A stretch of 57,301 bases of DNA from assembly GCA_964452945.1 (NCBI GenBank), contig CAYVOB010000001.1:1-57301 (forward strand), in the 5' to 3' direction. The position numbers and the translations under genes are program-made. Within the stretch, counting starts at the first letter, position 1, and every line of letters starts with the position of its first letter. Shown piece after piece: positions 9,870-26,596 of the stretch. This DNA is from an uncultured Bdellovibrionales bacterium (GTDB lineage Bacteria; Bdellovibrionota; JAFGOL01). The notes under the pieces are model-generated. The model was not told the origin of the DNA, ran no database searches, and worked only from the letters and a program-made list of their open reading frames with translations.

Positions 9870-9892
9870 GCTGTTTCTCCTATAAAATGAAT

Positions 9893-9924
9893 AAAAAAAG
9901 ACCCGAGCGTTCCTTCGCTCGGGT
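9893..9924 (-). terminator. rho-independent terminator-like hairpin inside the 5' leader of the acyl-CoA synthetase gene
   Basis: The minus strand reads ACCCGAGCG-AAGGAA-CGCTCGGGT followed by C and seven T. This is a perfect 9-bp GC-rich stem about 13 nt upstream of the GGAGA ribosome-binding site. No minus-strand gene lies upstream that it could terminate. Confidence 0.55.
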
Positions 9925-9982
9925 TTATCATAAAAACTAAAAAAGTTATAACGTCCTATTATAACCCCATAACCCCATAAGG

Positions 9983-10011
9983 ATATTATATTGTATGGTA
10001 ACATATGGCAA
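9983..10011 (-). promoter_or_regulatory. sigma-70-like promoter (TTGCCA-17 nt-TAATAT)
   Basis: Read on the minus strand as TTGCCA TATGTTACCATACAATA TAATAT. It lies in the divergent ribF/acd intergenic region and predicts a roughly 100-nt leader. Confidence 0.45.
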
Positions 10012-10056: not shown

Positions 10057-10962
10057 ATGAAGATACTTCAACTTAACAAGCCCAATCATAACGGGCCAAT
10101 AACAGCTTCAATAGGTATCTTCGATGGCCTACATAAGGGTCACAAAAAAGTACTTACGGAATTATTAAAGAATAAGAATAATAGCGCTGTTATCACTTTT
10201 CAAAAACACCCCAGGGGGATCAAAACCCTGCAGTCCCTTTCGGACAGGCTGAGGAACTTTAAGGCACTTGGCATCAACCAAGCAATAATATTTTCTAGCA
10301 ACGATGGGATACTAGAAATGACTGCAACAGAGTTCCTACAGAACATAATCGTTAAGCTGAACATAGTAAACCTTGTGATCGGAAATGATTTTAGGATGGG
10401 TCATAATAGAGATACAGATACCGGGAGCCTAGACGAGCTCTGCAAAAAGAACGGTATAGGACTTACGGTCATAGATGTCGTTTACGACGGTGATAAAAAA
10501 CTTAGCTCAACCCGCATCAGGGATTATGTTGAACACGGGAATGTCCCAAAGGCCATATCTCTTTTGGGTCACGACCTTGAGATCCATGGCGTCGTTGTAA
10601 AAGGCAAGGGCAATGGTGCAAAGATAGGTTTTAGGACAGCCAACATAAAGCTAAATACCTCAAGGACCTTACCAGATCATGGTATCTATGTAACAAGGAC
10701 TCATATTAATGGTGAGATATTCCCTAGTGTAACTTTTATAGGCAATAGTCCTAGTATACACAAAGACACACTAAAGATGGGGGAACCCTTGGTAGAAACA
10801 CATCTTATTGATTTTAATAAGGATATTTACGGGCAGAAGATCCAAATAGAATTAATAGAAAAGATACGGGATATTATAAAATTCGATAACACAGAGGAGC
10901 TATCAAGGGCAATAGCACAAGACGTAAGTTCTGCTGTAAAAAGATTACACAGTTACAAATAA
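10057..10962 (+). CDS. ribF: bifunctional riboflavin kinase / FMN adenylyltransferase
   Basis: 301 aa. N-terminal GIFDGLHKGHKKV nucleotidyltransferase motif; C-terminal riboflavin kinase part (IHGVVVKGKGNGAKIGFRTANI). Confidence 0.9.
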   Translation: MKILQLNKPNHNGPITASIGIFDGLHKGHKKVLTELLKNKNNSAVITFQKHPRGIKTLQSLSDRLRNFKALGINQAIIFSSNDGILEMTATEFLQNIIVKLNIVNLVIGNDFRMGHNRDTDTGSLDELCKKNGIGLTVIDVVYDGDKKLSSTRIRDYVEHGNVPKAISLLGHDLEIHGVVVKGKGNGAKIGFRTANIKLNTSRTLPDHGIYVTRTHINGEIFPSVTFIGNSPSIHKDTLKMGEPLVETHLIDFNKDIYGQKIQIELIEKIRDIIKFDNTEELSRAIAQDVSSAVKRLHSYK

Positions 10963-11046
10963 TTTATCCACTCAGGGTATTTTAACAAAGCTATATCTTG
11001 GTATAAAAGCCCACTAAGATCATATAGTTGTCAACTAACACAACTT

Positions 11047-11062
11047 TGGCACGCCGCTTGCT
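11047..11062 (+). promoter_or_regulatory. sigma-54 (RpoN) -24/-12 promoter
   Basis: TGGCAC-GCCGC-TTGCT matches the TGGCAC-N5-TTGC consensus exactly. It sits about 40 nt upstream of the ATG at 11103. Confidence 0.65.
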
Positions 11063-11102
11063 TTATATAAAGTGTAAAAAGAACCGAAAGGGGGAAGGAC
11101 AA

Positions 11103-11357
11103 ATGAGGAACTTATTTATAATCTTGGCGCTTCTTATAACAGGGAGCACTTATGCTGCAGCTTTTGGCGAAAACGACCCATCTATATATGCCGGGTGCCA
11201 AAACATGGGTGTAAACACCAAGTTCGATTTTAAAGATATGCTAGCTGTAATGAAAGGCTTTGGTTCAGGCAACGGCAGCAATGGTAGTACCGCCACCAAT
11301 CCTTCTGATCCTGCTGGCAACGGCAGTTCAGATGACGACGAAGTTAGCCCAGAATAA
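11103..11357 (+). CDS. small secreted protein with a Gly/Ser/Asn-rich, acidic tail
   Basis: 84 aa counted from the ATG at 11103, which is preceded by AAAGGGGGAAGG. Signal peptide MRNLFIILALLITGSTYAAA. Low-complexity C-terminus GSGNGSNGSTATNPSDPAGNGSSDDDE. The track's start at 11028 would overlap the sigma-54 promoter. Confidence 0.55.
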   Translation: MRNLFIILALLITGSTYAAAFGENDPSIYAGCQNMGVNTKFDFKDMLAVMKGFGSGNGSNGSTATNPSDPAGNGSSDDDEVSPE

Positions 11358-11360
11358 AAC

Positions 11361-11621
11361 TCACTGTGGCGTAGTCGTCTGATCACTGGTACCCGTACTT
11401 GTCTTATCAAAAATACTAGTGTGCTTTTTTGATAGCTGATTGACACTGAAGTCACAATCCTTTGGTCTGTAATTTATTATAGAAGTATTATCAAGCCCGG
11501 TATAAGACTTTGAAAAATCCTTTTGCACCAGACCACTCATATCATCCTCTTCGGCAACTGCATTACCAAAGCACAAAGAAAGCAGGGCGAAGCTACATAC
11601 AAGCGTTTTTGTTAATTTCAT
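11361..11621 (-). CDS. small secreted protein, last gene of the Tad-like cluster
   Basis: 86 aa. Signal peptide MKLTKTLVCSFALLSLCFGNAVA and a Thr/Ser-rich tail. A strong AAGGAGG lies upstream, 11 nt after the YD-repeat gene. Confidence 0.55.
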   Translation of the reverse strand: MKLTKTLVCSFALLSLCFGNAVAEEDDMSGLVQKDFSKSYTGLDNTSIINYRPKDCDFSVNQLSKKHTSIFDKTSTGTSDQTTTPQ

Positions 11622-11632
11622 ATCCTACCTCC

Positions 11633-13249
11633 TTAATCCTGAACTACTATTAGTTTGAACACGGACATAAGCTCCATATAATCAAGATAGGCCCTCTTTA
11701 CACTCCAGAACTTGTTAATATCGCTCCCTTCTCTTGGAACAGCGGACATTCTGCCTTCAGCATCGTAGCTTACCTTTACATCCGAATCTTTGGTACCAAG
11801 TTCACTTATCCTACCCATCTCGTCATATTTAAAGGAGAACGAGTTACCTTTGTTATCAATTATCTTGGAAACGTTTCCATTACCGTCATAATCGATCTTG
11901 AACTTAAGGTCCCTGCTGGCCACCATCGTTACTTGGCTTTTGTCATTATACTTGTAAAGGTATGGCTCTCCATTGTTTATTATAGAGGAGGCACGGTTCC
12001 TTTCATCATATTTTACTTCGACAATCCTTCCATCAGGAAAAACCTTCTTTTTTAGTCTGCCATCCTTGTTGTATTCAAAACGCGTGACCTTGCCGTTCTC
12101 ATTTACGACGAGTGGTGTACCGCAACACATGGTGTAGGTAACCATTTTTTCATGCTTACCGATCTTTTGTCTCGTCTTATAGGTATATAAGGAGCCTTCC
12201 GCATTAGGTCTTTTCCAGAACTCATATTTTTCCGGTATAACCTCGTTACCGAACTTCTTTATTATGTTTACGGAGTCATAGTATTGGTCCTTTCCCTTAT
12301 CACTCGCATATTCGGTGAATATTTCCCATCCCTGAGGTGTCTTCTGATATACCACCTTTCCTGTTTCTGTATCATAGCCGATCACCCATTTTGTAGGCTT
12401 TGGACCCGCATCACCTGCCGGAAGTACAACCTCTATGACCCTGTGATAGGAATCATACTTATAATTATATGTTTTCCCATTAACGTCGGTGGAACTTATA
12501 AGGTTATCGTTAGTATCGTAAGAATAGGATGCAGCCTTGTTATTATATAGAGCTATCCTTTCAACAAGACCCTTGTCGTTAAAGAAGAAGTTCATGCTCC
12601 TCCCCAGACTATCCCTGATAGTTTGTAACCTTCCATTGGCATAATAGGAAAAAACAAAGCCCCTTCCTGTAGGCATGCTCCTTTTTATGATCCTGCCTGA
12701 TTGATCGAACTCATCCACCACACCGTCGGCACCTGACCTTATATAACCACCCTTGACCTTCTTTAGCTTTTCACCCGATCTTTCTATACAAGTAAGCACA
12801 ACACCATCCTTTATTTTACCCAACATCTTGTAGCCTCTTGCATACTCAAACAAGAAAGCAGGCTCTTTAAGCAGTGTGCTCTTCAGTCTTTCAACATAGT
12901 CCTTACCGTTCTGTGCTGCATTGGTTGACTTAAGGTATCTATCAGCAAGCTGTGTTAAGGTGAACGAATCCTTGTCTATATAATGGTGTCTTCCTCCACC
13001 GGGGACTTCCTCAACCATGACAAAAGATCCATCAGCAACATATAGTCTAGTCTCAAAACGTGTGCCCCAGCCAAAGCCGAAGATACCCTTTGAAAGACTT
13101 ATACTGTTATAAAAACGACCCAACTCAAAATCATTACCTTCATTCACGTCAGTATAGGATAAAGAAAAGTTACCGTTCAGGAGCCAAAGAGTGGAAAAAC
13201 CAGATAACGGTGCAAGCATGACGGCTAATGCTACTATAATTTTTTTCAT
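11633..13249 (-). CDS. secreted YD/RHS-repeat protein (short, with no toxin tip)
   Basis: 538 aa with a signal peptide. It has multiple YD repeats (YSYDTNDNLISSTDVNGKTYNYKYDSYHRV, FEYNKDGRLKKKVFPDGRIVEVKYDERNR, IDYDGNGNVSKIIDNKGNSFSFKYDEMGRI, VSYDAEGRM). Confidence 0.8.
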   Translation of the reverse strand: MKKIIVALAVMLAPLSGFSTLWLLNGNFSLSYTDVNEGNDFELGRFYNSISLSKGIFGFGWGTRFETRLYVADGSFVMVEEVPGGGRHHYIDKDSFTLTQLADRYLKSTNAAQNGKDYVERLKSTLLKEPAFLFEYARGYKMLGKIKDGVVLTCIERSGEKLKKVKGGYIRSGADGVVDEFDQSGRIIKRSMPTGRGFVFSYYANGRLQTIRDSLGRSMNFFFNDKGLVERIALYNNKAASYSYDTNDNLISSTDVNGKTYNYKYDSYHRVIEVVLPAGDAGPKPTKWVIGYDTETGKVVYQKTPQGWEIFTEYASDKGKDQYYDSVNIIKKFGNEVIPEKYEFWKRPNAEGSLYTYKTRQKIGKHEKMVTYTMCCGTPLVVNENGKVTRFEYNKDGRLKKKVFPDGRIVEVKYDERNRASSIINNGEPYLYKYNDKSQVTMVASRDLKFKIDYDGNGNVSKIIDNKGNSFSFKYDEMGRISELGTKDSDVKVSYDAEGRMSAVPREGSDINKFWSVKRAYLDYMELMSVFKLIVVQD

Positions 13250-13275
13250 GGTCTATCTCCTATAGTAATTGTCGA

Positions 13276-14172
13276 CTAAACCTTTATAGATACTATTCGT
13301 TTTATCACAAATCCGCCTAAACCCTGAAGGAAAAACATCAGAGTCAGCATCCCATAACCCAAGGGTGTCGTGAATAGAAGTGCGGTCTGGGTTGGATTAC
13401 CATAATACTGGACCGCTAAAAGGACCAGGGGGACTACCGTTATTACTATTGCCTGGAATATTCCCTGTGCGGTCAATGCTTTTACCTTGGCTGTCAGCTT
13501 TACTCTTTCTCTTATTGTGTAGGCTATCGTATCGAACGTCTCTGGAAGATTACCACCGGTCTCCCTCAATATAAGTATGGCTGTTGCGAACATATCAAGG
13601 TCCTCAAGGTCCAGTCTTCGTGCCAGGTTAACAAAAGCTTCATCTATAGGTACACCGACCCTGTTCTGAGCCAACAATAATGTAAACTCCTGTTTAATAG
13701 GATTAGGCATCTCCTCAACTACAAGTCCAACAGCCTGTATAAGATTAAGACCGCTCCTTAACCCATTCGACATCAGTGTAAGGGCGTCGACCATTTGCAG
13801 GTTAAAGCTCATGGAGCGTTTTGCCTTCATCCAGTTTATTACCGGTATTGGCATCTTGGCGAACATGAACCCCACAGCAGAACCAACTAATATACCTGCT
13901 ATAAAGTTAGGTAAAAAGAGCACAAAAACTATAAAACCAATACCAAGTGTACCGGCATAAATAAGTATTAATGCAGTCCTCTTGTTGAAATCTATAAAAA
14001 GGGTATCCAGTTCCTTTACAAGCCATTCTGCTTTTTCTTCGAATTTTTTGTCTAGATAAGTAAGGGCTTTTTTGGAATTTATAAGTGCAACTATAAAAAT
14101 AAGGGTCCCGCCCATAACGAGCACCCCTATCTTATACAGCATCCATATGTTACCGCCTTCTTGCAACATCAA
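13276..14172 (-). CDS. tadB: Tad platform protein, TadB-like (T2SSF domain)
   Basis: Polytopic membrane protein with the T2SSF core LMSNGLRSGLNLIQAV..LARRL..DLDMFATAILILRETGGNLPETFD. It abuts the ATPase gene. The exact start is uncertain (14172, or 14142 for the MLYKIG start). Confidence 0.8.
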   Translation of the reverse strand: MMLQEGGNIWMLYKIGVLVMGGTLIFIVALINSKKALTYLDKKFEEKAEWLVKELDTLFIDFNKRTALILIYAGTLGIGFIVFVLFLPNFIAGILVGSAVGFMFAKMPIPVINWMKAKRSMSFNLQMVDALTLMSNGLRSGLNLIQAVGLVVEEMPNPIKQEFTLLLAQNRVGVPIDEAFVNLARRLDLEDLDMFATAILILRETGGNLPETFDTIAYTIRERVKLTAKVKALTAQGIFQAIVITVVPLVLLAVQYYGNPTQTALLFTTPLGYGMLTLMFFLQGLGGFVIKRIVSIKV

Positions 14173-16341
14173 CTATCCCACACTAAAAAGACCCTTAGGT
14201 ATGGAGATACCTCTGGCCTCTAGTGTTTCTATGAACCTAGGAATATATCCAGTAGCGACGAATTTTCCTATTACTTTGCCATTTGAATCAACACCTGATT
14301 GTTTGAAAAGGAAAATGTCATTCAACAAGATCTCATCACCCCTGATGCCATTGACCTCTGTAACATAAGTTACTTTTCTTGAACCATCACTTAATCTAGT
14401 CTGTTGTATCACTATATTTATTGCTGACGCTATCTGTTCCCTTATCGCCTTAGCCGGAAGTTCCATCCCTGCCATCATGACAAGTGTTTCCAGCCTTCTT
14501 ATGCAATCAGTTGGGCTGTTGGAATGTATAGTGGTCAATGAACCGTCATGACCCGTGTTCATAGCCTGCAACATGTCCAATGCTTCTCCTGAACGACACT
14601 CACCTACTATGATCCTGTCAGGCCTCATCCTGAGCGTGCATTTTACAAGGTCCCTTATGGTGACTTCTCCTTCACCTTCTATGTTAGGAGGCCTGCTTTC
14701 CAACCTAACAGTATGGTCCTGTTGAAGTTTAAGCTCGGCCGAATCTTCGACGGTGATTATTCTTTCGTGCTCCGGTATCATCCCTGAAAGTATATTGAGG
14801 AGTGTTGTTTTACCTGAGCCGGTACCACCGGAAATTATTACATTAAGTCTGGACTCTATTACCGCCTTAAAGAACTCCGTCATATCACTTGTAACAGAGC
14901 CATATTTGATAAGATCATTTGGTCCGAGTTTTTCCTTCTTGAACTTTCTTATAGTCAGCGTGGGGCCATCTATTGCCAGTGGAGGTATTATGGCGTGAAC
15001 TCTTGAGCCATCTGCAAGACGCGCATCAACATAAGGTGATTTTTCGTCTATACGCCTGCCTATAGGTGCAAGTATCCTCTCTATAACTCCCATTAATTGT
15101 TGTGAGGACGAGAACGTAGATGGCGAAAGTATGACTTTACCATTTTTCTCTATGTATATTATATCTGGACCATTGACCATTATTTCCGATACTGTTTCAT
15201 CTGACAAAAGATCTTCCAAAGGACCAAGTCCCAAAGCCTCATCCAGAATGGCCTTTATCAACAAGGCCCTGTCTTCCCTGCTCTTAAGAAAACTTAAGTC
15301 CTCTTTCTCCAACAACCCGATAACCGTTCTTTTTGTCTTCTCATAGAGAATGGTCATCTTGTTAGGATCATCCTTAGTCTCAAGGTCCATCTTCTTAAGG
15401 TCCATATTGTCTATGAGTGCTTTGTGGACCCTGCGCTTTAGTTTTGTAACCTCACTAACTTTACCGGCTCTTCTTTCCTTGACGCTGAGGGTTTCAAGTC
15501 CAGCAAGGTCTTGCGCAGCTAAGGCCCCTTCTTTTTGAGCGCTCTGCTGTTCTGCCTTTTTTGTTTTATTAACGCCATATAACGAATCGAGTATCCCTCT
15601 CTCCTGCAAGACCCTGGCTATCTGGTATATGTTCTTAGACAACAAGCTCTTTGGGGACAACAATATTGCCGGTTTACCTTTAGTTATGGAATTATGGCTG
15701 GTCTCTGGGTCTTCTTGCACAGCGCCGAGTATTGGCACAGAAAGATTGGACTGCACTATCTGAGGAGTGATCTGGTTTGAAGGATCATATTTATTAATTA
15801 TAACTTTGAGCACTTCTGGCGGGAACATTAAACCATTAAGTTCATCCACAAGTCTTTTAGTGTGTTTTAGGACTAATATCTCCGGGTTGGTTACAAGGAG
15901 TATGATCGTGGCTTGTTCTAGGATAGTAAGGACCTGTGGTGTAAGACGGCTTCCGCAATCAGCTATGGTAAACGGGAAAAAGGACATAGCTGCTTCCATG
16001 ACCCTTTTTATATCGTTACTACCCACACCGTTATATTCGGACATCTTTTGTACCATAGGAAGAACGCTTAGCCCGCTAGAATGTGCAGACAAGAATTCCT
16101 TAAGCATCGCCTGCGTAACCCTGCCTGTGAATTTTGAAACATCCGCAATGCTTCTTTGTGGTTTGATACCTAATATCATACCAGCATCACCACAGGTATC
16201 CGGATCAGCGTCTATTAAAAGTACTGGTCGCTTTGTATCTAACAAAAAAGATAAAGCAAGGTTGGTTGAAAAAAGGCTCTTGCCGACTCCACCCTTGCCG
16301 CCAAGAACCGCGATCAAGTAAGTTCTGCTTGGATTAGGCAT
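14173..16341 (-). CDS. cpaF: fusion protein: MinD/ParA-like TadZ/CpaE domain plus CpaF/TadA secretion ATPase
   Basis: 722 aa in one frame. The N-terminal roughly 255 aa carry the deviant Walker A AVLGGKGGVGKS and the IDADPD motif (MinD/CpaE type). The C-terminal roughly 420 aa form the CpaF core (EIMVNGPDIIYIEKNGK, ISGGTGSGKTTLLN, VEDSAEL, RMRPDRIIVGECRSGEA, NTGHDGSLTTIHSN). Confidence 0.85.
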   Translation of the reverse strand: MPNPSRTYLIAVLGGKGGVGKSLFSTNLALSFLLDTKRPVLLIDADPDTCGDAGMILGIKPQRSIADVSKFTGRVTQAMLKEFLSAHSSGLSVLPMVQKMSEYNGVGSNDIKRVMEAAMSFFPFTIADCGSRLTPQVLTILEQATIILLVTNPEILVLKHTKRLVDELNGLMFPPEVLKVIINKYDPSNQITPQIVQSNLSVPILGAVQEDPETSHNSITKGKPAILLSPKSLLSKNIYQIARVLQERGILDSLYGVNKTKKAEQQSAQKEGALAAQDLAGLETLSVKERRAGKVSEVTKLKRRVHKALIDNMDLKKMDLETKDDPNKMTILYEKTKRTVIGLLEKEDLSFLKSREDRALLIKAILDEALGLGPLEDLLSDETVSEIMVNGPDIIYIEKNGKVILSPSTFSSSQQLMGVIERILAPIGRRIDEKSPYVDARLADGSRVHAIIPPLAIDGPTLTIRKFKKEKLGPNDLIKYGSVTSDMTEFFKAVIESRLNVIISGGTGSGKTTLLNILSGMIPEHERIITVEDSAELKLQQDHTVRLESRPPNIEGEGEVTIRDLVKCTLRMRPDRIIVGECRSGEALDMLQAMNTGHDGSLTTIHSNSPTDCIRRLETLVMMAGMELPAKAIREQIASAINIVIQQTRLSDGSRKVTYVTEVNGIRGDEILLNDIFLFKQSGVDSNGKVIGKFVATGYIPRFIETLEARGISIPKGLFSVG

Positions 16342-16345
16342 ATAT

Positions 16346-18013
16346 TTATTTCACCCTGAATTTTTCTTTTATGGAATCGCTACCCTCGCTGGCAGTGTTC
16401 AAAATTTCCGGAGTAATAAAGACGACAAATTGTGATTTGCCTTTAGAGAAGGATTTGGACCTAGAAAGGCTCACAATAACGTTAGGATCTTCACTGCCGT
16501 CCATATAGGACTTGGACAGGTTATTTTGTACTATACCGCCTATGGCGGCAGTATCACCAGATTTTATGTTTATATATGTTTCTATAGAATCCTCTGATGT
16601 AATAGGTATTGTAGTCCCGGAGGACGTACCTATAACCTGTGATACACCTATAGCTATGGTCATATTCAGATCTTCTGATTTTTGCGGATCATTCAGTATC
16701 TTTGGAGTGATGTTCATACTGATACCTACATCAGCAGTTTTTGTATCGATACTGTTCTGTGTCTGCACCACATAAGGATATTTTGTCATCTTCTTGATGC
16801 TGCCAGTCTTGGTATCTTGTACCGTTATTGCTGCCGATTGAATAACCCTTCCCCTACGATTCCTCACTGCATCCTGAAGCTTTGGTATAAAGTTACTTAC
16901 TATACCTGTTATGGTAGTCGCTGTAGATGGCAATGGATTACCGTTGTTGTCATTAGCTGGAGGGTTGGACCAAGTAAAAGATGCATTAGTATTGTTCGTA
17001 TTTATTGATGGCGCCCAACTGAAACCAAAGGCATTATCAAATCCCTTTTGTATCTCGACAAAGTAAACCGATATCTTAACCACTTTATCGATAGGTTTAT
17101 CCGGCTCTATGACCTTAACAAAATACTGTATGATCGGCTTATCCCTAAACCCTTCTGCCGGCATCGTCATTTCTCCTGCACCGGAAGGATCGCCTATCAA
17201 AGGTGTATAAAAGTACTTTGGCAGATAAAGCACGGCCCTGTAATAAACATCTTCAAGTTCATCATAACTTTTTACTTCGCCTTTCAACACAAAGCGCTGA
17301 TTCACAACATCTACCTGTACGGTAGCTACATTAATTTCTTCTTGCATCTTTTGAGCGACTATTTTGAACAATGTAGGACTCAACCTGTATTGTATCTTGA
17401 ATATGTCTGTCGGTATGTAATCACTATTCCCGCCGATCACCTGGTGTATCCTGGCTATATCCTCCGGCAATAGTATCTCGCCATCCAGGTATATACGTTT
17501 TTCACGTATATACATCTTCAAGCCCTCTATATTCTTAAATTCCCTCTTAAGGAAGCCAAGGACCCTTTTAAGGTTCTTTTCCGTAACAGTAACGTTATAA
17601 ACATACCTAAGCACATCCTGGTTATCGTAGACCCAAAGATCTGTCATCCCCGGGGTAGTTCCGGTAAAAACTATTCTATCCTTTTCAAGACTTGGATCAT
17701 CTTCTTTTTTATTTACCTCAAATTTATATATATTGGGGTTGGTTGGTTGCCTTACTGTCCCAATAGGAAAATCAAGATAGAGCTCTTTTCGTATTCCGAG
17801 GACCACATTTATGTCGCGATATTTTACCTTTGGTTTCTTTTTTAATTTCTTTTTCTCTGTTTTCACATCCTTAACAGCAACGCTATCAGTTTGCACTTGA
17901 TCTTCTGTTGTGTTTGGGGCTTGAGCAGCATTGTCCTGAGAGAGCAATACACAAGAGTATGCAAAAGAAAGGACTAGAATTATTGAAAGCAGTATTTTTC
18001 TAAACTTCATCAT
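16346..18013 (-). CDS. cpaC: secretin, CpaC/RcpA-like
   Basis: 555 aa with a signal peptide and a low-complexity K-rich linker. C-terminal secretin-type region (GDTAAIGGIVQNN..FVVFITPEIL). Its position between cpaB and the ATPase is as in Tad loci. Confidence 0.8.
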   Translation of the reverse strand: MMKFRKILLSIILVLSFAYSCVLLSQDNAAQAPNTTEDQVQTDSVAVKDVKTEKKKLKKKPKVKYRDINVVLGIRKELYLDFPIGTVRQPTNPNIYKFEVNKKEDDPSLEKDRIVFTGTTPGMTDLWVYDNQDVLRYVYNVTVTEKNLKRVLGFLKREFKNIEGLKMYIREKRIYLDGEILLPEDIARIHQVIGGNSDYIPTDIFKIQYRLSPTLFKIVAQKMQEEINVATVQVDVVNQRFVLKGEVKSYDELEDVYYRAVLYLPKYFYTPLIGDPSGAGEMTMPAEGFRDKPIIQYFVKVIEPDKPIDKVVKISVYFVEIQKGFDNAFGFSWAPSINTNNTNASFTWSNPPANDNNGNPLPSTATTITGIVSNFIPKLQDAVRNRRGRVIQSAAITVQDTKTGSIKKMTKYPYVVQTQNSIDTKTADVGISMNITPKILNDPQKSEDLNMTIAIGVSQVIGTSSGTTIPITSEDSIETYINIKSGDTAAIGGIVQNNLSKSYMDGSEDPNVIVSLSRSKSFSKGKSQFVVFITPEILNTASEGSDSIKEKFRVK

Positions 18014-18786
18014 CTATCTAAACCAAATATCTCCCTATCCGTTGTCGGAGTTATTATCTCATTACCTCTGTCGTTGGCGTTCCTTAGTGTATAATAAAGC
18101 TCAGCTCCAGATAAAGCTACTATCTTTTGTGCTTCTTTTGGCGTCACTTCTATCGTGATATTGTTGAACTGTTGACCTGTCTCTGAACCTTTGTCCGGCT
18201 GAACACACTTAAACCCTTTTGGATAATTAGCATCAGACACAAAAGTTGGGACCTGAGTGTATACATCAGTCCCGACCGAGAGAACAAAGACATCCTGCAA
18301 GACGGTAGTAACTTTTGCTGTGTTCTGATTACCTTCTGCAACCACGGATGAGGCAAGTATATCTATCCTGTCACCTGGTTTTATAAGGTTAGCAACACTA
18401 TTCACAGTTGTAGCTCTTATCGCTATTGCACGTTTCCCTTTTGACACTATCGGGGATAATCCTGTTTTCTGACCAAGGAACAAGAGTTTATTCGTAGTAA
18501 TAGTTTCATTCTCGGCAATTGGAACCGCAGTGACCGTGTCCTTTAGGTCTTTAACATTTGCAAGATAGTTAGGCTGTACGTATTTTCTAGGTATCCTTCT
18601 AAGTTCGATCGAACCAGAATCTATTGATTGATATTGTCCTATGTTCTTCGTGGCGACCATCACCTCATCAAAAGTGCCAAGGTCCTGATACAGTTTTGCC
18701 TCTTTTTGGGATATATATGTATACCCAAGTAATATGGCAAAACCAGTAAGTATGACGGATATTATAAGCGACTTTGTATTACCCAT
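18010..18786 (-). CDS. cpaB: Flp pilus assembly protein CpaB/RcpC-like (SAF domain)
   Basis: 258 aa with an N-terminal membrane anchor and a SAF-like segment (IELRRIPRKYVQPNYL). It has a 4-nt overlap with the secretin gene. Confidence 0.75.
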   Translation of the reverse strand: MGNTKSLIISVILTGFAILLGYTYISQKEAKLYQDLGTFDEVMVATKNIGQYQSIDSGSIELRRIPRKYVQPNYLANVKDLKDTVTAVPIAENETITTNKLLFLGQKTGLSPIVSKGKRAIAIRATTVNSVANLIKPGDRIDILASSVVAEGNQNTAKVTTVLQDVFVLSVGTDVYTQVPTFVSDANYPKGFKCVQPDKGSETGQQFNNITIEVTPKEAQKIVALSGAELYYTLRNANDRGNEIITPTTDREIFGLDR

Positions 18787-18797
18787 ATGTCTCTCCT

Positions 18798-20138: not shown

Positions 20139-20168
20139 ATATAGACCCTCAACGTAAAGTATAACCCT

Positions 20169-20375: not shown

Positions 20376-20377
20376 TA

Positions 20378-20659: not shown

Positions 20660-22774
20660 TCATAATTTAGTGCCACACCTTTTTTTAGCTCTCTCCGCAG
20701 CATTATTGTAATACTTACTTCCAGGTATCGCTATCTCCAACACCCTATTATACAAAGGGCATGCAGTTGCAAGATCAGAAACACTTTCTGCTATAGCAGC
20801 TCTTGCAAAGATCTCCCTTGCTTCTTCATCCAAAGCTTCCTTGGATTTATTTATACCGTCCTTTGCCTCCTTGTTCTTGTAGTCCATCTTCAAGACCCTT
20901 TTATAAGCATCTATGGCCTCTTTATATCTACCGTTGGTATAAGCCTCCATAGCACCGCTCAGCTCTGGTGTAACAGCCTCTTTAAGAAGATTGCTGGCCG
21001 AACCCAAAAGTGTTTTGCACTCGTTCTTTATCTGTGTGATCCTTTCTCCGTCGCTGGGTGGATAAGCTACACACTTCTGGAATGTTTCTATGGCCTTTCT
21101 GTACTCCTTAGTGGCGTGATACCTTTTCCCCTCAGCAAGCACTTTCTCATACTTGGAAAGTGTAACAAGGTATTTCGCTCTCTCGTCAGCAAGCATCTTC
21201 TTTTTAGATTCCATTGCCTCTATCTGATCCGCTAGCGCTTTTGCTTTCTCATTATTGGGGTCTATCTCGAATATCTTGGAGATCAGGTCTTTTACTTGAT
21301 CATATTTTTTTTGTCGCATCAGTGACTCAGCATCCTGAAGGTATAGGGCCACCTTTTTTTCCAGTTCCTTCCTGACCACTGCCTCTTCTTCTTCTTTCTT
21401 TTGAGCCAGGAGTTTTTCCTTTTCTGTATTAGCTGCATTCAAAAGTTCTTTTGCCTTATCCCAGTCAGGGACTTCGGTAAGTATTTGTTGTGCCATATCC
21501 TCGGCAAGCTCGAACTGATAGTTCTTGAACAGCTTAAGTGCCACTTCATATTTAGCCAGTAATTCTTTTTGTACCGTTAATGTACGTTGACAAAAAGATC
21601 CCGTCTCCTCACATTTTACTTCCGGAATAGCCTCTTCTGCGGGAGCTGCCTGTGGTTCAACATTATTATTGTTAACAGGCGCAGGCTGTTCCTGTTTGCT
21701 CCCTTTTCCCAACAAGATCACAGCTACAACGACTATAAGTCCAACGATCAGGATTATTGGTATTAGTTTATTCTTCTTTATAGCTTCTTTAGCACCTTCT
21801 TTAAAGCCATAGGACTTCTCTATCTTTCTTATAGCGGTATCACTTGGTACCGCAGAGATCTTCTCTACGGATCCATGCTTTGATCCTGTGGTTTGACCTA
21901 TATCCTTAACACCCTGGATGTTCTGCACTTGGGGATTTACGACCATAAAGCGGAGTATAGAGGAACCAATCTCTATAATGTCTCCGCTAGTAAGAAGGAC
22001 CGGCTCAAGAGTTTTTTTGCCATTTACTCTTGTGCCGTTAGCACTATCAAGATCGACTACAAAATAGTCAACACCCTGCCTATAGAACCTGGTATGCTCT
22101 CTGGATACAAGATCATCTATAAGAGATATATCAGCTTTTTTTCCTCTACCGGCTATCATCACGTCTTTTTCAAGAGTGAATACTTTATCCTTGTGCGGAC
22201 CACTTATAGCGATGAGTTGATATAAAAGATATGCTGGCCCCACCATTGTAGCATCGGAGACTACCTGTCTTGACTCTGTTGTCTTTTCCTCTTTTTTACC
22301 AGCAACAGGCTCTACTTTTTCTTCTACCTTTTCTTTTTCTTCATCTTTTTCTTTTTCCGTAGGCTCTTTTGCTTCTTCTTGTTCAGGCGTGACGGTCTCT
22401 TCCTTTACAGGTTCAACCTCTGCGCTCATAGTAAAAAAATCAAAGTCGTCCTGTTTTTTCTTTGGCTTTTCTGACTCACTCGAACCTGCTTTTGCATCGA
22501 ACATCACTGTCACGTCACCTATGGATACACTCTCACCATCCTTTAATTCACCTTTTTCTATATCTTCACCATTCTTGTTTATCATGCCAAATTTTGCTTT
22601 CTTAGAGAAAGAAAGAGTTTCGGCATCCTTTACATTGAATTCAATGTGTTTACGAGACACGTTGTCTTCCGGTATACAGATGTCGCAACTTTCTGTACGA
22701 CCAAGGACAAAAGAATCCCTTTTTATATCGAACTCTTTAATGAGCTTGTTTGCTTTAAAAACCTTTATTTTCAT
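20660..22774 (-). CDS. membrane protein with two cytoplasmic FHA domains and a periplasmic TPR-rich domain
   Basis: 704 aa. FHA1: LGRTESCDICIPEDNVSRKHIEF. Acidic E/K linker. FHA2: AGRGKKADISLIDDLVSREHTRF..VVDLDSANGTRVNG. One transmembrane helix (LIPIILIVGLIVVVAVILLG). The C-terminal part has TPR-like repeats. Confidence 0.8.
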   Translation of the reverse strand: MKIKVFKANKLIKEFDIKRDSFVLGRTESCDICIPEDNVSRKHIEFNVKDAETLSFSKKAKFGMINKNGEDIEKGELKDGESVSIGDVTVMFDAKAGSSESEKPKKKQDDFDFFTMSAEVEPVKEETVTPEQEEAKEPTEKEKDEEKEKVEEKVEPVAGKKEEKTTESRQVVSDATMVGPAYLLYQLIAISGPHKDKVFTLEKDVMIAGRGKKADISLIDDLVSREHTRFYRQGVDYFVVDLDSANGTRVNGKKTLEPVLLTSGDIIEIGSSILRFMVVNPQVQNIQGVKDIGQTTGSKHGSVEKISAVPSDTAIRKIEKSYGFKEGAKEAIKKNKLIPIILIVGLIVVVAVILLGKGSKQEQPAPVNNNNVEPQAAPAEEAIPEVKCEETGSFCQRTLTVQKELLAKYEVALKLFKNYQFELAEDMAQQILTEVPDWDKAKELLNAANTEKEKLLAQKKEEEEAVVRKELEKKVALYLQDAESLMRQKKYDQVKDLISKIFEIDPNNEKAKALADQIEAMESKKKMLADERAKYLVTLSKYEKVLAEGKRYHATKEYRKAIETFQKCVAYPPSDGERITQIKNECKTLLGSASNLLKEAVTPELSGAMEAYTNGRYKEAIDAYKRVLKMDYKNKEAKDGINKSKEALDEEAREIFARAAIAESVSDLATACPLYNRVLEIAIPGSKYYNNAAERAKKRCGTKL

Positions 22775-23748
22775 TATTCAAAAACTTCCCCTCTTCTTTT
22801 TTCGGTCATATTTTTCCACTTCTCGGCTTCTTTGAATAGATTCGAATCCGCTTGTCTGTTGTTAAGGTTCAAAACCTCATTAAAATTCCTCAATGCATCC
22901 TCATAACGCTTTTGGGCGAACATCTTTTTCCCTATGGATAGATATTTCTGGCTTTCCTCTTCTATCTTCTTGTTGGTTTGACCTGCGGCTGTTTTAGCCC
23001 TTGTATGGCCTGGATAAAAGGCAACCGCTTTTCTGAACTCTTCCAATGCTCTCGAATAATTCTGCAACCTGAATTCTCTTTGTCCCTCAAAATAACGAGC
23101 ATTAGCCTGATCGAATAATTCCCGTTCATCGTCAGGTATCTTTTTTCTGAACCTGGCATCCTCTTCATCGCTGAACATATCATTGTTGTTATTCTGGTTC
23201 TGTCCAGATGTATTAACGGCCTGGTCCTTATCGGACCCTTCTTTAGATTTCTCCTGTGACGGCAACATCAATATAAAAATGACCAGAAGTAATAAAACCC
23301 CGCCGTATATAACGAACCTCTTGTTCTTAATACCTTTAGCTCCTGTTGTCGAAGACGGTATATTAAAATCCATAGAAGACGAAGATATCCCTGGTATTGT
23401 CCTTTCTGGACTTTTTGACTGTGATGGTTCATTGAGCCTTAGTTCCTCAACATCTTTTTCTGCATACATGTACTCATGGTTCCCAATAGAGAACACATCA
23501 CCTGATACGAGATAATGTTCCTTTACTTTTTTACCGTTAACAAGAATACCATTACTGGAATTAAGGTCTTTTATTACAAAGGAATCATTCACTCTTATAA
23601 GTTCTGCATGATTCCTTGATGCTGATGAATCAGTTACAACTATATCATTATCTGCAGAGCGGCCAAAGCGTACACTGCTGCCTTTGATCCTGAATTGTGC
23701 TCCAGCATCGTTACCCTTTAGTATCTCTATTCTTGCTTCCTTTGCCAT
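22774..23748 (-). CDS. membrane protein with an FHA domain and TPR repeats
   Basis: 324 aa. FHA: FGRSADNDIVVTDSSASRNHAELI..IKDLNSSNGILVNG. Transmembrane helix FVIYGGVLLLLVIFILML. C-terminal TPR-like repeats. Its stop overlaps the start of the next gene (TAATG). Confidence 0.8.
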   Translation of the reverse strand: MAKEARIEILKGNDAGAQFRIKGSSVRFGRSADNDIVVTDSSASRNHAELIRVNDSFVIKDLNSSNGILVNGKKVKEHYLVSGDVFSIGNHEYMYAEKDVEELRLNEPSQSKSPERTIPGISSSSMDFNIPSSTTGAKGIKNKRFVIYGGVLLLLVIFILMLPSQEKSKEGSDKDQAVNTSGQNQNNNNDMFSDEEDARFRKKIPDDERELFDQANARYFEGQREFRLQNYSRALEEFRKAVAFYPGHTRAKTAAGQTNKKIEEESQKYLSIGKKMFAQKRYEDALRNFNEVLNLNNRQADSNLFKEAEKWKNMTEKRRGEVFE

Positions 23749-23754
23749 ATCCTT

Positions 23755-25374
23755 TTATACCATCTCCACGCTGACGCAGTGATACGTAAACTCTCCCCTG
23801 TCATTTTTTATACCGCTTACCCCTATCCTGTATACCTTATCACTAACTATTGCCTCCTCGCTAAGATCCTGTCCCATTTCATCGAACCTGGCAATAAGGC
23901 TCAAGATAACACCAAGTATCCTTTGCTCCTTGATCGCGTCCACTAAAGGGATCCCGTGCCAATCAGAAGCTCTGTACGTAGTAATAGTAGAAAAAGCCTG
24001 ATTGGCAGAAACTATCGTATTTGAGTTATCCAATACAAAAAAAGGTACTTTAAGTGAACGACCAACTGAATCGAAGATAAGGATGTTGTCTATACCGCCA
24101 TGCATGTCATGCAGCGATTCTGGTGCATTCTCATAAAAGACCTTAGCAGAAGCCCTTCTAGATTTTCTTATAAGTATGTTCAAAAGCTCTACTAGGTCCA
24201 TTCCCTCCCTGGTACCAAAGCTATAATTAACTCTTTTTGCTTCACCCTTGAGAGCGAGATCAAGCTCGTCGTATATCCTGACAAAAGGCAGAGTGAATAG
24301 CCTAGAAAAGAACATCGCAATTAACACGCCAATAAAGCAAGCTATAGCCATACCGACCAATATCCTTTGCCAAGCACCCGCCATGCTATTCTGTATACCA
24401 GAGGTGCCGAACATAAGTGTGGCAAAACCAACGATCACGTTCTGGCCCTCTCCTTCAGAATAGACCTTTATTGGCGATGTAACAATATACTCTCCGTTAC
24501 CCACAGAAAAAACATCCGCGCTCCTTTTGTAAACATTGGCGCCTATTTTTACAGTATCTTCCTTAAATTCTATTGTTCCTTTTAGTATCTCCTTTATCCT
24601 GTCCATTACAGCACCGGGGATCTGGTCTCCTGCTCTATCAGCTGGAGCGAGTATCTTTCCGTTTAGGTCAGTAATGGCGGACCATTCCACACCAGGAACA
24701 TCTTCGGCTGCTTTGATAGAAGGGATCTCTTCACTCTCTGTAGTGACAGTATTCTTGTTTTCTTCTGCAAGCAGGTTCGAAAGATATACAGCCCTCTGTG
24801 CAGCCTCATTATCAAGCAACATACTGTCAAACTGGATCACAGGTACGGTAACTATGAGCGTAATGGCAACTATACTAACAAGCAGCACTATCGATATAAT
24901 CACTGATACGGAATATCTTTTTGATATTTCCTCAAAGAAAGGCATTACAGTCGTCTCAAGGAAAGAATCAATACTCCCTTTTAAGCCCGGAATCCTTGTT
25001 CTTGGTTTACCCCTATATTCAAATTCATAATCATCACTTTGTTGTCCCTCTGGGACAGAAAAGCTGGACATATCTTCGATTTTAACATCACCTTTAACCA
25101 GCTGGTATACGTGATCATGTATCGCTATTTTATCACCGGCGTTGATCTCTTTTTTCTTAACCATAACACCATTAACGAAGGTACCATTCTTGGAACCAAG
25201 GTCTATTATACTTACAATGCTGCCCTTAACATTTATGTTGGCATGCTTTTTTGATACACCGTTAGAAGCGATCTTTATATCCGCACCATCGGCACGACCT
25301 ATAATGTTATCTCCTTCTTTAAGTATCGATGACCTTGCCGAGCTCTGGCCGCTTAAACATATCAGGCGGAACAT
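23755..25374 (-). CDS. FHA-domain membrane protein with a periplasmic sensor-like loop and a HAMP/PAS-like C-terminus
   Basis: 539 aa. FHA: IGRADGADIKIASNGVSKKHANI..IIDLGSKNGTFVNG. Two transmembrane helices flank a loop of about 150 aa. A cytoplasmic C-terminal domain follows, with no kinase or other output motif visible. Confidence 0.75.
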   Translation of the reverse strand: MFRLICLSGQSSARSSILKEGDNIIGRADGADIKIASNGVSKKHANINVKGSIVSIIDLGSKNGTFVNGVMVKKKEINAGDKIAIHDHVYQLVKGDVKIEDMSSFSVPEGQQSDDYEFEYRGKPRTRIPGLKGSIDSFLETTVMPFFEEISKRYSVSVIISIVLLVSIVAITLIVTVPVIQFDSMLLDNEAAQRAVYLSNLLAEENKNTVTTESEEIPSIKAAEDVPGVEWSAITDLNGKILAPADRAGDQIPGAVMDRIKEILKGTIEFKEDTVKIGANVYKRSADVFSVGNGEYIVTSPIKVYSEGEGQNVIVGFATLMFGTSGIQNSMAGAWQRILVGMAIACFIGVLIAMFFSRLFTLPFVRIYDELDLALKGEAKRVNYSFGTREGMDLVELLNILIRKSRRASAKVFYENAPESLHDMHGGIDNILIFDSVGRSLKVPFFVLDNSNTIVSANQAFSTITTYRASDWHGIPLVDAIKEQRILGVILSLIARFDEMGQDLSEEAIVSDKVYRIGVSGIKNDRGEFTYHCVSVEMV

Positions 25375-25700
25375 CTTATAACCTCCCCGATCTTTAACGA
25401 CTTTGATTCTATAGTACCACTATAAAGCTCTAGCGTGCTCTTTGCCTTAAATCTTGGTTTGCATATTCTCCACGGTCTTACATTACTTTCCATATCTACG
25501 ATCGCGTTATTAGCATCAAGATATACAGCATCTATATTATTGATCATGAACAATGTATGTATCCAATTGCATCTCGGTATCAGCAGACCATCTCCCTCGT
25601 TTATTGATCGCTTTAACATAAAGCCCCTAAATCTCAAAAAAACAGATTCCGCTCTTTCTACATTGTCAGCTATCATTCTTTCGCCAGAGGATATTTTCAT
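25362..25700 (-). CDS. DUF192 (COG1430)-like small protein
   Basis: 112 aa. The pattern RFRGFMLK..GDGLLIP.CNWIHTLFM...IDAVYLD..N.IV......PW......KA.STLELYSGT fits my recollection of DUF192. It overlaps both neighbours (4 nt and 13 nt). Confidence 0.6.
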   Translation of the reverse strand: MKISSGERMIADNVERAESVFLRFRGFMLKRSINEGDGLLIPRCNWIHTLFMINNIDAVYLDANNAIVDMESNVRPWRICKPRFKAKSTLELYSGTIESKSLKIGEVIRCSA

Positions 25701-26596
25701 CCGCCATAAACCTTCTTTAAGATGATCGGACCGAATATAACTATAAAAACTGCCGGAAGTATGAATATTGCCATCGGGATCAATATCTTTGTCGCCGCTT
25801 TTCCGGCCTTAGCCTCGGCTGACATAAACCGTTCATGCCTGATAGAATCTGATTGTGCTCTAAGTACATCCCCTACGGGAGATCCCATCCTTTCAGCCGT
25901 AACAAGAACAGAGACAAAAGAAGTTATCTCCTTAAGACCGATCCTGTCTGCCATGTTCTTTAACGCTTCACTTCTCATGGCACCAAGCTGTATCTCCTTT
26001 AGCACTATCTCGAACTCTGACCTTAAAGGTCCAGGCTGTCCCTTTTCCACGACCTTGCCCATAGCTCCATTAAAATCAAGTCCAGCTTCCACACAAAGAG
26101 TTAAAAGATCGACCACAAATGGCATCTCTCTCTTTACTTGATCTTGGCGTTTTACGATAACACCGTTTATCCAGAACTGTGGATAATACCAGCCAAAAAA
26201 AGCAAATATGGGGGCATACATTACAGGAAGCCCAAAACCCAAAATGAAGTTATATATGTAAACTGCGAACGGAAGAGAGAATGCAAACACGACCCTGTAA
26301 GCATACATGTCGTCTGGAGAAAAAACGTCCCTCAACCCAGCACTAGAGAGTTTCTTTCTCATTTTTTCCCTATACTTCTCTAGCTTCCACTTTGTAACAC
26401 TGGGTAATATCCTTCTTACCAGAGGATACATCACCTTCAACACCGGCGATGGAAAATCTTTTTTGATCAGGCCTATCCCAAGCCTTTCTTGATCATCGAT
26501 GGAAAGCTCTTCACCTACGATAAGTTTGACAAGGATATATATAGCTATGCCAATAAGTATTGCTGCAATAATGAGTGTAATAGTGCCCATCCCCAT
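25697..26596 (-). CDS. tadC: Tad platform protein, TadC-like (T2SSF domain)
   Basis: 299 aa polytopic protein with the core MPFVVDLLTLCVEAGLDFNGAM..MADRIGLKEITSFVSVLVTAERMGSPVGDVLR. Confidence 0.8.
   Translation of the reverse strand: MGMGTITLIIAAILIGIAIYILVKLIVGEELSIDDQERLGIGLIKKDFPSPVLKVMYPLVRRILPSVTKWKLEKYREKMRKKLSSAGLRDVFSPDDMYAYRVVFAFSLPFAVYIYNFILGFGLPVMYAPIFAFFGWYYPQFWINGVIVKRQDQVKREMPFVVDLLTLCVEAGLDFNGAMGKVVEKGQPGPLRSEFEIVLKEIQLGAMRSEALKNMADRIGLKEITSFVSVLVTAERMGSPVGDVLRAQSDSIRHERFMSAEAKAGKAATKILIPMAIFILPAVFIVIFGPIILKKVYGG

Follow-up and report, generated by a model that had tools for sequence, protein, structure and literature searches.

Does the pair of genes that closes the Flp/Tad pilus operon of an uncultured Bdellovibrionales bacterium, coding for a toxin-less YD-repeat protein and a small secreted protein, correspond to the pair Bd0109/Bd0108 of the Bdellovibrio host-interaction (hit) locus? 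The hit locus is the best-known Bdellovibrio switch between predatory and prey-independent growth, and Bd0108, termed Bdellovibrio-specific in the literature, had seemed a genus-specific oddity (PMC3818213; PMC4267844). Bd0109 belongs to the RHS/YD-repeat proteins and is bound by Bd0108, a small signal-peptide protein (PMC3818213; PMC4267844); the latter is intrinsically disordered, and binding takes place via its N-terminal part (PMC4267844). The two genes are transcribed together with those of the Tad/type IVb pilus, and mutations in bd0108 alter pilus extrusion and give prey-independent growth (PMC3818213). Published work ties the two proteins not to Tad pili alone but also to type IVa pili, and their mechanism in Bdellovibrio itself is only a model. 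The initial annotation of the 57,301-nucleotide stretch of DNA analyzed here (contig CAYVOB010000001.1, assembly GCA_964452945.1; we will refer to the whole stretch as “the window”) had proposed a hit-locus-like module, and its picture of Bd0108 and Bd0109 beside type IVb/Tad genes agrees with the papers (PMC3818213; PMC4267844).

The genes upstream of the pair constitute a Flp/Tad (type IVc) operon, since the Flp, TadE/F-like, RcpC/CpaB, secretin, CpaE, CpaF/TadA and TadB/TadC components are all found (Table 1). They are co-directional, with overlaps or gaps of at most 30 nt, and follow the order Flp, Flp, three pseudopilin-like genes, RcpC, secretin, CpaE-CpaF fusion, TadB, YD and small ORF. 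As initially described, the 538- and 86-aa ORFs end this operon on the minus strand, each behind a strong Shine-Dalgarno (SD) sequence; 26 nt separate the tadB stop (13276) from the YD start (13249), and 11 nt the YD stop (11633) from the start of the small ORF (11621). No intrinsic-terminator-like site was found around the YD/small gene pair, and the YD protein would be made from the same transcript as the pilus machine. The pseudopilin-like genes have class III signal-like N-termini (KGQA..E), namely ..KKGQAMLE, ..KKGQVAVEF and ..RKGQATVEF, and counterparts of all three are found in all related loci, to which the CpaE-CpaF fusion is also common; Flp1_like is matched by the positional equivalents of the Flp-type pilins in other loci. 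Further upstream, the FHA/DUF192/TadC-like genes are co-directional and conserved with the operon in the window clade, with the FHA genes adjoining the Flp genes directly upstream in loci L012-L015. A prepilin peptidase (Peptidase_A24) was not found within the window's Tad operon, as in B. bacteriovorus (PMC5430801) and unlike L007, L009 and L017. Rfam models returned tRNA only, with no rRNA.

Table 1. Genes of the Flp/Tad operon and its surroundings in the window, with the evidence for each assignment.
Feature	Position	Strand	Evidence
Second small secreted protein, 84 aa from ATG	11103..11357	+	ORF; SD GGAAGG; promoter-like site 11046-11073
Small secreted protein, 86 aa	11361..11621	-	ORF with ATG; SD AAGGAGG upstream
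YD/RHS-repeat protein, toxin-less, 538 aa	11633..13249	-	ORF with ATG; SD GGAG upstream
TadB-like inner-membrane platform protein (T2SSF)	13276..14172	-	Pfam T2SSF E 1.8e-19; 38% identity to L011 TadB
CpaE (ParA/MinD-like)-CpaF/TadA (T2SSE) fusion ATPase, 722 aa	14173..16341	-	Pfam T2SSE 2e-63 and CbiA/ParA; NCBIfam TadA-family
Secretin (RcpA/CpaC)	16346..18013	-	Pfam Secretin 2.6e-18; 30% identity to L011 secretin
RcpC/CpaB	18010..18786	-	Pfam RcpC 8e-20; 33% identity to L011 RcpC
Three TadE/pseudopilin-like genes	18798-19298, 19273-19836, 19833-20138	-	Weak Pfam Class_IIIsignal and TadE matches
Two Flp-type pilins	20378-20569 (63 aa), 20169-20375 (68 aa)	-	N-termini ..RGQSATEYILILAVL and ..KKGQATVEYLLLMVV
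Three FHA (+TPR) proteins, DUF192, second T2SSF (TadC-like)	20660..26596	-	Pfam FHA/Yop-YscD_cpl, DUF192, T2SSF

The 538-aa protein matches Pfam RHS_repeat (E 3e-27) and DUF6531 (E 2.6e-7), both past the curated cutoffs, as well as NCBIfam YD_repeat_2x (E 1e-23). A signal-peptide-like hydrophobic segment at the N-terminus is followed by the DUF6531 beta domain, a helical insert (about residues 98-139) and the YD repeats, for which the AF2 model (pLDDT 86, pTM 0.76) gives a beta sheet of about 30 strands (151-505) ending in a C-terminal helix (511-534), 33 residues past the last YD strand. Foldseek ranks T6SS Rhs cores and teneurins first for this model (TMq up to 0.54), with Rhs cocoons covered over part of their length only (TMt 0.3 or less), and phmmer against the PDB finds the repeat region homologous to T6SS Rhs effectors (down to 1.6e-23). 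Given this homology, and a small downstream gene being typical of Rhs loci, the pair might be taken for a decayed Rhs polymorphic-toxin locus, i.e., a shell that has lost its toxin tip and a leftover immunity-like gene, retained by chance beside Tad and with no pilus function. Such a history is very improbable, since the 531-560 aa architecture recurs with intact frames across hundreds of clusters, which is not the mark of decay, and the position after tadB is kept between clades whose YD proteins are only ~25% identical. Neither are the components of a Rhs/YD toxin locus (core autoprotease, C-terminal toxin, delivery context and cytoplasmic immunity gene) present. The Rhs-associated core/protease model scores far below threshold (NF041261 RHS_core, 51 bits vs a cutoff of 2000), and no toxin domain or further family of Pfam or NCBIfam was matched in the YD protein. 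PAAR, VgrG and T6SS genes are absent from the 45 window ORFs compared with Pfam (every ORF between 10 and 54 kb that reaches 150 aa, together with gyrB and an acetyl-CoA synthetase ORF, but not four further ORFs of this size class close to the window ends), and both small ORFs downstream carry signal peptides, unlike cytoplasmic immunity proteins. The first reading of the locus had likewise listed the lack of toxin domain, immunity gene and PAAR/VgrG context. Lacking the autoprotease/toxin end, the protein would serve as a cell-envelope scaffold or binding protein and not as a toxin. It is predicted to be exported by Sec, probably to the periplasm, and to consist of a plug-like DUF6531 domain and, after it, about one half of the YD beta-sheet shell seen in Rhs proteins, with a conserved helix at the end where Rhs toxins bear the autoprotease and toxin.

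The closest characterized relative of this protein is found in the hit locus. BLASTP aligns it colinearly with B. bacteriovorus P0117 (= UniRef Q68VD7) over 528 of its 538 aa (27% identity, E 2e-44), and with the YD protein of the B. bacteriovorus locus L011 at 26% identity (E 7e-40); full-length homology, domain architecture and the position of the gene, directly after tadB at the end of a Flp/Tad operon, all place it in the Bd0109 family. Every core Tad protein likewise finds its top match at the corresponding position of a B. bacteriovorus locus, with identities decreasing from CpaEF (48%) through TadB (38%), RcpC (33%) and secretin (30%) to YD (26%), and the same gene order is observed in B. 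bacteriovorus L010/L011, in the Bdellovibrionaceae-type loci L007/L009/L017 and in the window-clade loci L012-L015. The proposal of a hit-locus-like module is thus upheld by homology and gene order, and none of the grounds on which it would have been abandoned was encountered: there is synteny with the hit locus, no toxin domain is recognized, and the host is affiliated with a predatory order and may itself be a predator. The Bd0109-type family comprises 843 members at E<=1e-20 with profile A3, built on a distant subgroup; the best 120 of them are 541-559 aa long with the same domains, and the named ones among these 120 are nearly all from Bdellovibrio or Bdellovibrionaceae/Pseudobdellovibrionaceae. 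The Bdellovibrio proteins were reached by this profile only and not by the broad-alignment profile A1 (a word-index limit), and a contig scan with the narrower alignment A2 reached the window clade only. The nearest named relatives of the window locus are Bdellovibrionales MAGs. On the other hand, the YD proteins of the window clade contain C154 and the vicinal pair C375-C376, and not the four Cys at 65/85/309/334 of the Bdellovibrio type. In sequence terms this pattern marks a distinct YD subfamily, and the details of partner binding may differ accordingly with the pattern; the four-Cys arrangement is no published defining trait of the family.

The second gene of the pair raises a more basic question, as spurious ORFs of 80-110 aa are plentiful in this window of 40% GC and the 86-aa product has no Pfam or NCBIfam match, so that the YD protein alone might be real. 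That the ORF is not a gene is nonetheless hardly credible. Its SD sequence is strong and correctly spaced, and in 10 of the 10 related loci with readable downstream sequence the YD gene is succeeded by an ORF that is homologous or equivalent in position. The product always has a signal peptide and a single conserved Cys, which belongs to a “PKxC” motif, though the small proteins are 36% identical where the YD proteins are 70% identical. Two independent database entries, P0205 (98% identity) and P0208 (39%), are its only true relatives in an exhaustive phmmer search over 1.84e9 representatives. Two further matches of that search were rejected in spite of E-values as low as 1e-22: P0206 (899 aa) owes its score to the sum of 8 weak (27%) tandem-repeat matches, and P0207 (3811 aa), with 4 matched stretches, is assumed to be an artefact of the same kind. 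The retention of motif and Cys in the window clade despite quick divergence indicates selection, and the comparison of sequences identifies the ORF as a real, fast-evolving gene. Its product has a predicted signal-peptide cleavage site after AVA, an acidic N-terminus, the motifs DFSKSYTG and I-I-N-Y-R-P-K-D-C-D, the latter holding the single Cys, and a Thr/Ser-rich C-terminal tail (KTSTGTSDQTTTPQ). Its charge-hydropathy values fall on the disordered side of the boundary, as for Bd0108-type proteins, and AF2 (from a 3-sequence alignment) models the signal-peptide helix only, with pLDDT 53. Such a protein would be secreted and largely unstructured.

Even with both genes accepted as real, they need not work together. 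The YD protein might be a structural or adhesive Tad accessory (periplasmic or outer-membrane docking, carbohydrate-binding, pilus adhesin), and the small ORF an unrelated lineage-specific peptide, with no Bd0108-like pairing. The YD position is as conserved as that of the core Tad genes in all loci examined, and the failure to delete bd0109 in Bdellovibrio suggests a core role (PMC3818213); the small ORF, for its part, is unrecognizable between clades, and the L009 version is devoid of any Cys. We regard this explanation as unlikely, because a small signal-peptide ORF lies directly after YD in every locus examined (gaps of about 10-35 nt), including L016, where the YD gene and the small ORF are paired with no Tad genes nearby, which argues that the two form a unit. 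The window-clade small protein, moreover, keeps its motif and Cys while diverging fast, and direct binding between Bd0108 and Bd0109 has been published (PMC3818213; PMC4267844). The YD fold alone implies no pilus role, since short toxin-less DUF6531-YD proteins also occur away from Tad genes, as in L016 and in Lacibacter (L018).

Whether the small partner is Bd0108 itself in divergent form is a separate matter. Comparison of both proteins with the hit-locus pair had been suggested at the outset, and the homology that was found for the YD protein has no parallel here: hhalign of mature-part alignments of the small family against the Bd0108 type yields a probability of 0.04% (E 0.88), BLASTP an E of 0.16, and the exhaustive phmmer search no Bd0108-type match. 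[quoted passage not shown] An hhalign alignment including the signal peptides (E 3.5e-4) consisted mostly of signal peptide, with ~15 mature columns, and was rejected as homology; nor is a possible link from “PKxC” to NPKC and PVEC, found in second small ORFs of Bdellovibrio loci, significant (hhalign E 0.071 over 5 columns). A trait in common is that of a small Sec-signal protein (86 aa vs ~100) encoded immediately after the YD gene. On these alignments, the 86-aa protein is a positional analogue of Bd0108, and may be either a divergent homologue or an independent replacement; as the small gene evolves so fast, undetectable homology would be expected under either reading.

A second small secreted protein, of 84 aa, is encoded convergently to the operon (Table 1). 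Its gene recurs at this place in each of the 8 clade loci whose sequence extends far enough, and the protein always contains a single Cys in its mature part, which makes it a candidate extra member of a small-protein array, presumably linked to the module. In the 8 loci with both small genes, each protein contains exactly one mature Cys despite near-total sequence turnover. It might be imagined that these two one-Cys proteins replace the CxxC-bearing Bd0108, forming disulfides together or with the invariant C375-C376 of the YD protein, so that a ternary complex in the envelope would gate the Tad pilus in a redox-sensitive manner, a scheme that we hold to be doubtful. A simpler “3 + 1 cysteines” arrangement, with a disulfide between C154 and the small protein, fails, as the YD proteins of L001 and L014 lack the third Cys.

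Taken together, we consider it probable that the YD/86-aa pair is the counterpart of Bd0109/Bd0108 in an uncultured lineage affiliated with the Bdellovibrionales, with a YD scaffold and a small partner modulating the pilus. [quoted passage not shown] In this deeply divergent lineage, the YD protein and its position at the operon end have been retained, while the small gene diverges at nearly the highest rate open to a protein, keeping its signal peptide, a short motif and a Cys. The conservation of the former, together with the constant presence and rapid turnover of the latter, supports a “YD scaffold plus small disordered secreted partner” as the conserved unit, and not Bd0108 itself. Ten small-protein sequences, the distinct Cys pattern and the free-standing L016 pair provide comparative material to guide interaction and structure studies.

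The Kil system of Myxococcus xanthus, which includes FHA-domain components, resembles the window operon in that it is Tad-like, belongs to a predatory lineage and has minor pilins. The term “FHA” is absent from PMC12075869 on text search; the portions of that paper considered here cite Bdellovibrio as having a Kil-like system, and mention no YD protein/small-partner pair in Kil clusters. The YD beta-sheet fold and DUF6531-type N-terminus are shared with T6SS Rhs effectors and Tc-toxin BC cocoons (RhsA 7q97, Tse15 8uxt, YenB/C 4igl), but the window protein is roughly half as long as a closed cocoon, is apparently Sec-exported, and lacks the Rhs-associated core autoprotease, toxin, PAAR/VgrG and immunity gene. 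Closer parallels exist among Bdellovibrio and like organisms (BALOs), across which the bd0109-bd0113 region is syntenic (PMC5430801). Halobacteriovorax (Bacteriovorax) marinus SJ has a Bd0109 homologue, BMS_0182, with the small neighbors BMS_0183/0184 (PMC4267844), and wastewater Bdellovibrionales MAGs contain small-gene arrays beside Bd0109 homologues (PMC10469934); these Tad loci have 2-3 small signal-peptide ORFs with no significant Bd0108 homology (PMC4267844; PMC10469934). Judged by their published descriptions, the window resembles them in having two small secreted ORFs after YD, and differs in that the second one is convergent in the window clade and co-directional there. Such positional analogues having already been reported (PMC4267844; PMC10469934), the novelty of the present pair is modest, and the module opens no new kind of system. 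With regard to Bd0108 (101 aa), the 86-aa protein has one Cys in PKxC in place of the DPN and CxxC/CxC motifs and is more hydrophobic (22% vs about 11% ILVFMWY); both are small proteins of polar, low-hydrophobicity composition, with a signal peptide, an acidic mature start, a central Cys-containing motif and a polar tail, encoded immediately downstream of YD. As for Bd0109 of strain HD100 (via P0117, P0102 and P0119), identity is about 26-27% only, the conserved Cys differ, and the window-clade operon has three FHA genes and an additional TadC-like gene directly before it, an arrangement not shared by L010/L011. Nevertheless, both YD proteins (538 vs 550-551 aa) begin with a signal peptide and a DUF6531 domain, after which the YD repeats run on without interruption, and have no Rhs protease or toxin, and in both cases the gene lies directly after tadB at the 3' end of the operon, followed by that of a small signal-peptide protein.

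The YD/RHS-repeat protein and the small secreted protein are encoded by the last two genes of a tight co-directional array on the minus strand, which runs from ~26.6 kb down to 11.36 kb of the window. The initial annotation had placed this pair at the tail of the Tad operon, and it was right in every detail checked: TadB and the YD gene are separated by 26 nt, the YD gene and the 86-aa gene by 11 nt, and Shine-Dalgarno sequences (GGAG and AAGGAGG, respectively) precede both; no terminator-like site was found in window 10900-13400. CpaE (ParA-like) and CpaF (TadA) form a single protein, and such fusions (719-742 aa) occur in all Bdellovibrionota-type loci compared. Immediately 5' of the Flp genes, three FHA-domain proteins, two of them with TPR, are encoded in a row (20660-25374, minus strand); related loci of the window clade (L012-L015) keep FHA genes at this place, and the B. 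bacteriovorus loci (L010, L011) have none there. No Peptidase_A24 prepilin peptidase gene lies between the window Flp and pseudopilin genes (18798-20569, minus strand), as in L010/L011, whereas other Bdellovibrionaceae-type loci (L007, L009, L017) carry one there. Further genes of the window include one for a stand-alone T2SSE-family ATPase, which lies ~30 kb away from the Tad operon and may be a retraction ATPase of the PilT kind, and one for a protein that unusually combines NHL repeats with three D-glucuronyl C5-epimerase beta-sandwich-like domains. An ADP-forming acetyl-CoA synthetase-like ORF, listed with 775 aa from an upstream ATG, probably starts at an internal Met (MKNVETII...), since its relatives have 728-745 aa.

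Features of the Tad operon, its tail and other genes of the window
Feature	Position	Strand	Remarks
Three FHA(+TPR) proteins, DUF192 protein, T2SSF (TadC-like) protein	5' part of array	-	
Two Flp-like pilins	20378-20569, 20169-20375	-	
Three TadE/pseudopilin-like genes	18798-20138	-	
RcpC/CpaB	18010-18786	-	
Secretin	16346-18013	-	
CpaE-CpaF fusion ATPase	14173-16341	-	722 aa
TadB	13276-14172	-	
YD protein	11633-13249	-	538 aa
Small protein	11361-11621	-	86 aa
Second small secreted ORF	11103-11357	+	84 aa; own Shine-Dalgarno; promoter-like site 11046-11073
Acetyl-CoA synthetase-like ORF	7677-10004	-	
NHL-repeat protein	32631-35201	-	856 aa
T2SSE-family ATPase	44597-45724	-	375 aa

The YD protein matches Pfam RHS_repeat (3e-27) and DUF6531 (2.6e-7) and NCBIfam YD_repeat_2x (1e-23), and no Rhs-associated core, protease or toxin model of Pfam/NCBIfam, in agreement with its earlier description as lacking a C-terminal toxin domain; NF041261 gave 51 bits against a cutoff of 2000. 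Its AlphaFold2 model, computed from 56 aligned sequences, has high confidence (pLDDT 86, pTM 0.76): after the signal peptide come a small beta domain (~residues 17-91), an insert of helices (98-139), a succession of ~30 beta strands (151-505) and, at the C-terminus, a helix (511-534). Foldseek searches against the PDB returned T6SS Rhs cores, teneurins and Tc-toxin BC cocoons, the same families as the PDB sequence matches, and the model spans only part of those shells (TMq <=0.54, TMt <=0.3). Because of this partial coverage, together with the missing core, protease and toxin matches, the protein is predicted to amount to about half of an Rhs shell that has no cargo to enclose and nothing to cleave.

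The close relatives, of 531-543 aa and 42-83% identity, are metagenomic, and those from named genomes belong to MAGs that are titled "Bdellovibrionales bacterium" or are unclassified. A second tier shares 24-29% identity (~550 aa), and a profile built from it retrieved 843 proteins at E<=1e-20; the best 120 of these have 541-559 aa with DUF6531 and RHS, those named being nearly all from Bdellovibrio or Bdellovibrionaceae/Pseudobdellovibrionaceae. They include UniRef Q68VD7 ("rhs family", B. bacteriovorus), a protein of the type of Bd0109, the YD protein of the host-interaction (hit) locus; the window protein aligns with it over residues 1 to 508 (27% identity, E 2e-44). A decayed Rhs toxin locus would be another reading of the pair, and fits the conservation pattern less well than a hit-like pair.

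The likeness to the hit locus is also supported by gene order, which equals that of L010 and L011: Flp, Flp, three small genes, RcpC, secretin, CpaE-CpaF fusion, TadB and YD (550-551 aa), and then a signal-peptide protein of 96 aa that carries CxxC, the Bd0108 type. The best match of each window protein is the positionally equivalent B. bacteriovorus gene (CpaEF 48%, TadB 38%, RcpC 33%, secretin 30% and YD 26% identity). The TadB-YD-small ORF tail is common to L007, L009 and L017, and to L012-L015, L001, L004 and L005 of the window clade. Away from Tad genes, L016 (10001-11882) holds a Bd0109-like YD gene with a 74-aa Cys-rich small ORF, which supports the YD and small genes being a functional unit; this pair adjoins an integrase fragment, and further along (16836-20112) two genes, for 66 and 76 aa, occur together in three tandem copies. 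The YD protein could instead be a structural Tad accessory and the small ORF unrelated to it, a poorer fit to the conservation pattern than the hit-like pair. The short YD architecture also exists in Bacteroidota in another context, as Lacibacter sp. H407 (L018 6937-13381) carries two tandem toxin-less DUF6531-YD genes (555 and 558 aa) without Tad genes, directly 3' of a 1020-aa Peptidase_C14 (caspase-like) and TPR protein.

The 86-aa protein has no family match in Pfam or NCBIfam, and phmmer, run exhaustively against 1.84 billion representatives, retrieved only a copy at 98% identity and a relative at 39%. Two other candidates were rejected: P0206 is a tandem-repeat protein whose score summed 8 weak repeat matches, and P0207, matching in 4 stretches, was assumed to be similar. 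A co-directional small ORF follows the YD gene in 10/10 window-clade loci with downstream sequence, 9-25 nt past its stop (8-nt overlap in L014), and all ten products have a signal peptide. Most of them contain a DF-x-K-x-Y/F-x-G motif; the proteins also have a polar tail and a hydrophobic-x-V/I-x-P/S-K/E-x-C segment, which holds the sole mature Cys. The ORF is thus a real gene; its being a non-gene fits this conservation less well than a hit-like pair. It changes much faster than its neighbors: between the window and L013 the small protein is 36% identical, YD 70% and CpaEF 90%, and the L015 counterpart was missed by BLASTP at a YD identity of 51%.

Against a Bd0108-type alignment (L010, L011, L007, L017), the window small proteins show similarity only within and just past the signal peptide, and hhalign with the mature parts detected no homology (probability 0.04%, E 0.88). 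The mature chain falls on the disordered side of the charge-hydropathy boundary, as Bd0108-type proteins do, and AF2 gave no structure except the signal-peptide helix (pLDDT 53, shallow alignment). The initial annotation had proposed either a very divergent homologue or an independent replacement: the protein is a positional and compositional analogue of Bd0108, to which homology cannot be shown. Given the fast change of the gene, undetectable homology is expected at a YD distance of 26%, with or without shared ancestry, and the present data fit both alternatives.

The second small ORF is convergent with the 86-aa gene, their stop codons lying 3 nt apart, and is kept in each of the 8 clade loci that offer sufficient sequence, with exactly one mature Cys in each. 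In window-clade YD proteins a vicinal Cys-Cys (375-376) is invariant and C154 is usually present, unlike Bd0109-type proteins, with four other conserved Cys (~65/85/309/334), which suggests other disulfide or partner chemistry; as a speculative reading, the Cys of the YD, 86-aa and 84-aa proteins could link all three.

By analogy with the Bdellovibrio experiments, the YD and 86-aa proteins would be exported to the periplasm or envelope, where the half-shell could serve as a binding scaffold; the disordered partner would bind it weakly and modulate its availability, and the pair would tune pilus extrusion and retraction, and downstream signaling. Bd0109 is a PF05593 YD protein of ~65 kDa that interacts with Bd0108; the two share an operon with type IVb pilus genes, from which both are expressed, and mutations in bd0108 change the extrusion of pili (Capeness et al., 2013, PMC3818213). 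Bd0108 is an intrinsically disordered protein of 101 aa with a CXXC motif, and its residues 24-66 mediate binding; Bd0109 has neither the protease domain nor the variable domain at the C-terminus (Prehna et al., 2014, PMC4267844). Synteny of bd0109-bd0113 extends across BALOs (Avidan et al., 2017, PMC5430801), and in Bdellovibrionales bins from wastewater, Bd0109 homologues are adjoined by 2-3 short signal-peptide genes in arrays (2023 MAG study, PMC10469934). In the light of these loci, the window is another instance of a described pattern. What the analysis shows is the gene structure, the synteny, the YD protein's homology and architecture, and how the small gene is conserved; this supports the interpretation of the pair as a new member of the known Bd0109/hit-locus module, a divergent subfamily from an uncultured lineage of Bdellovibrionales, whose value lies in the comparative material it offers on the hit-locus switch.
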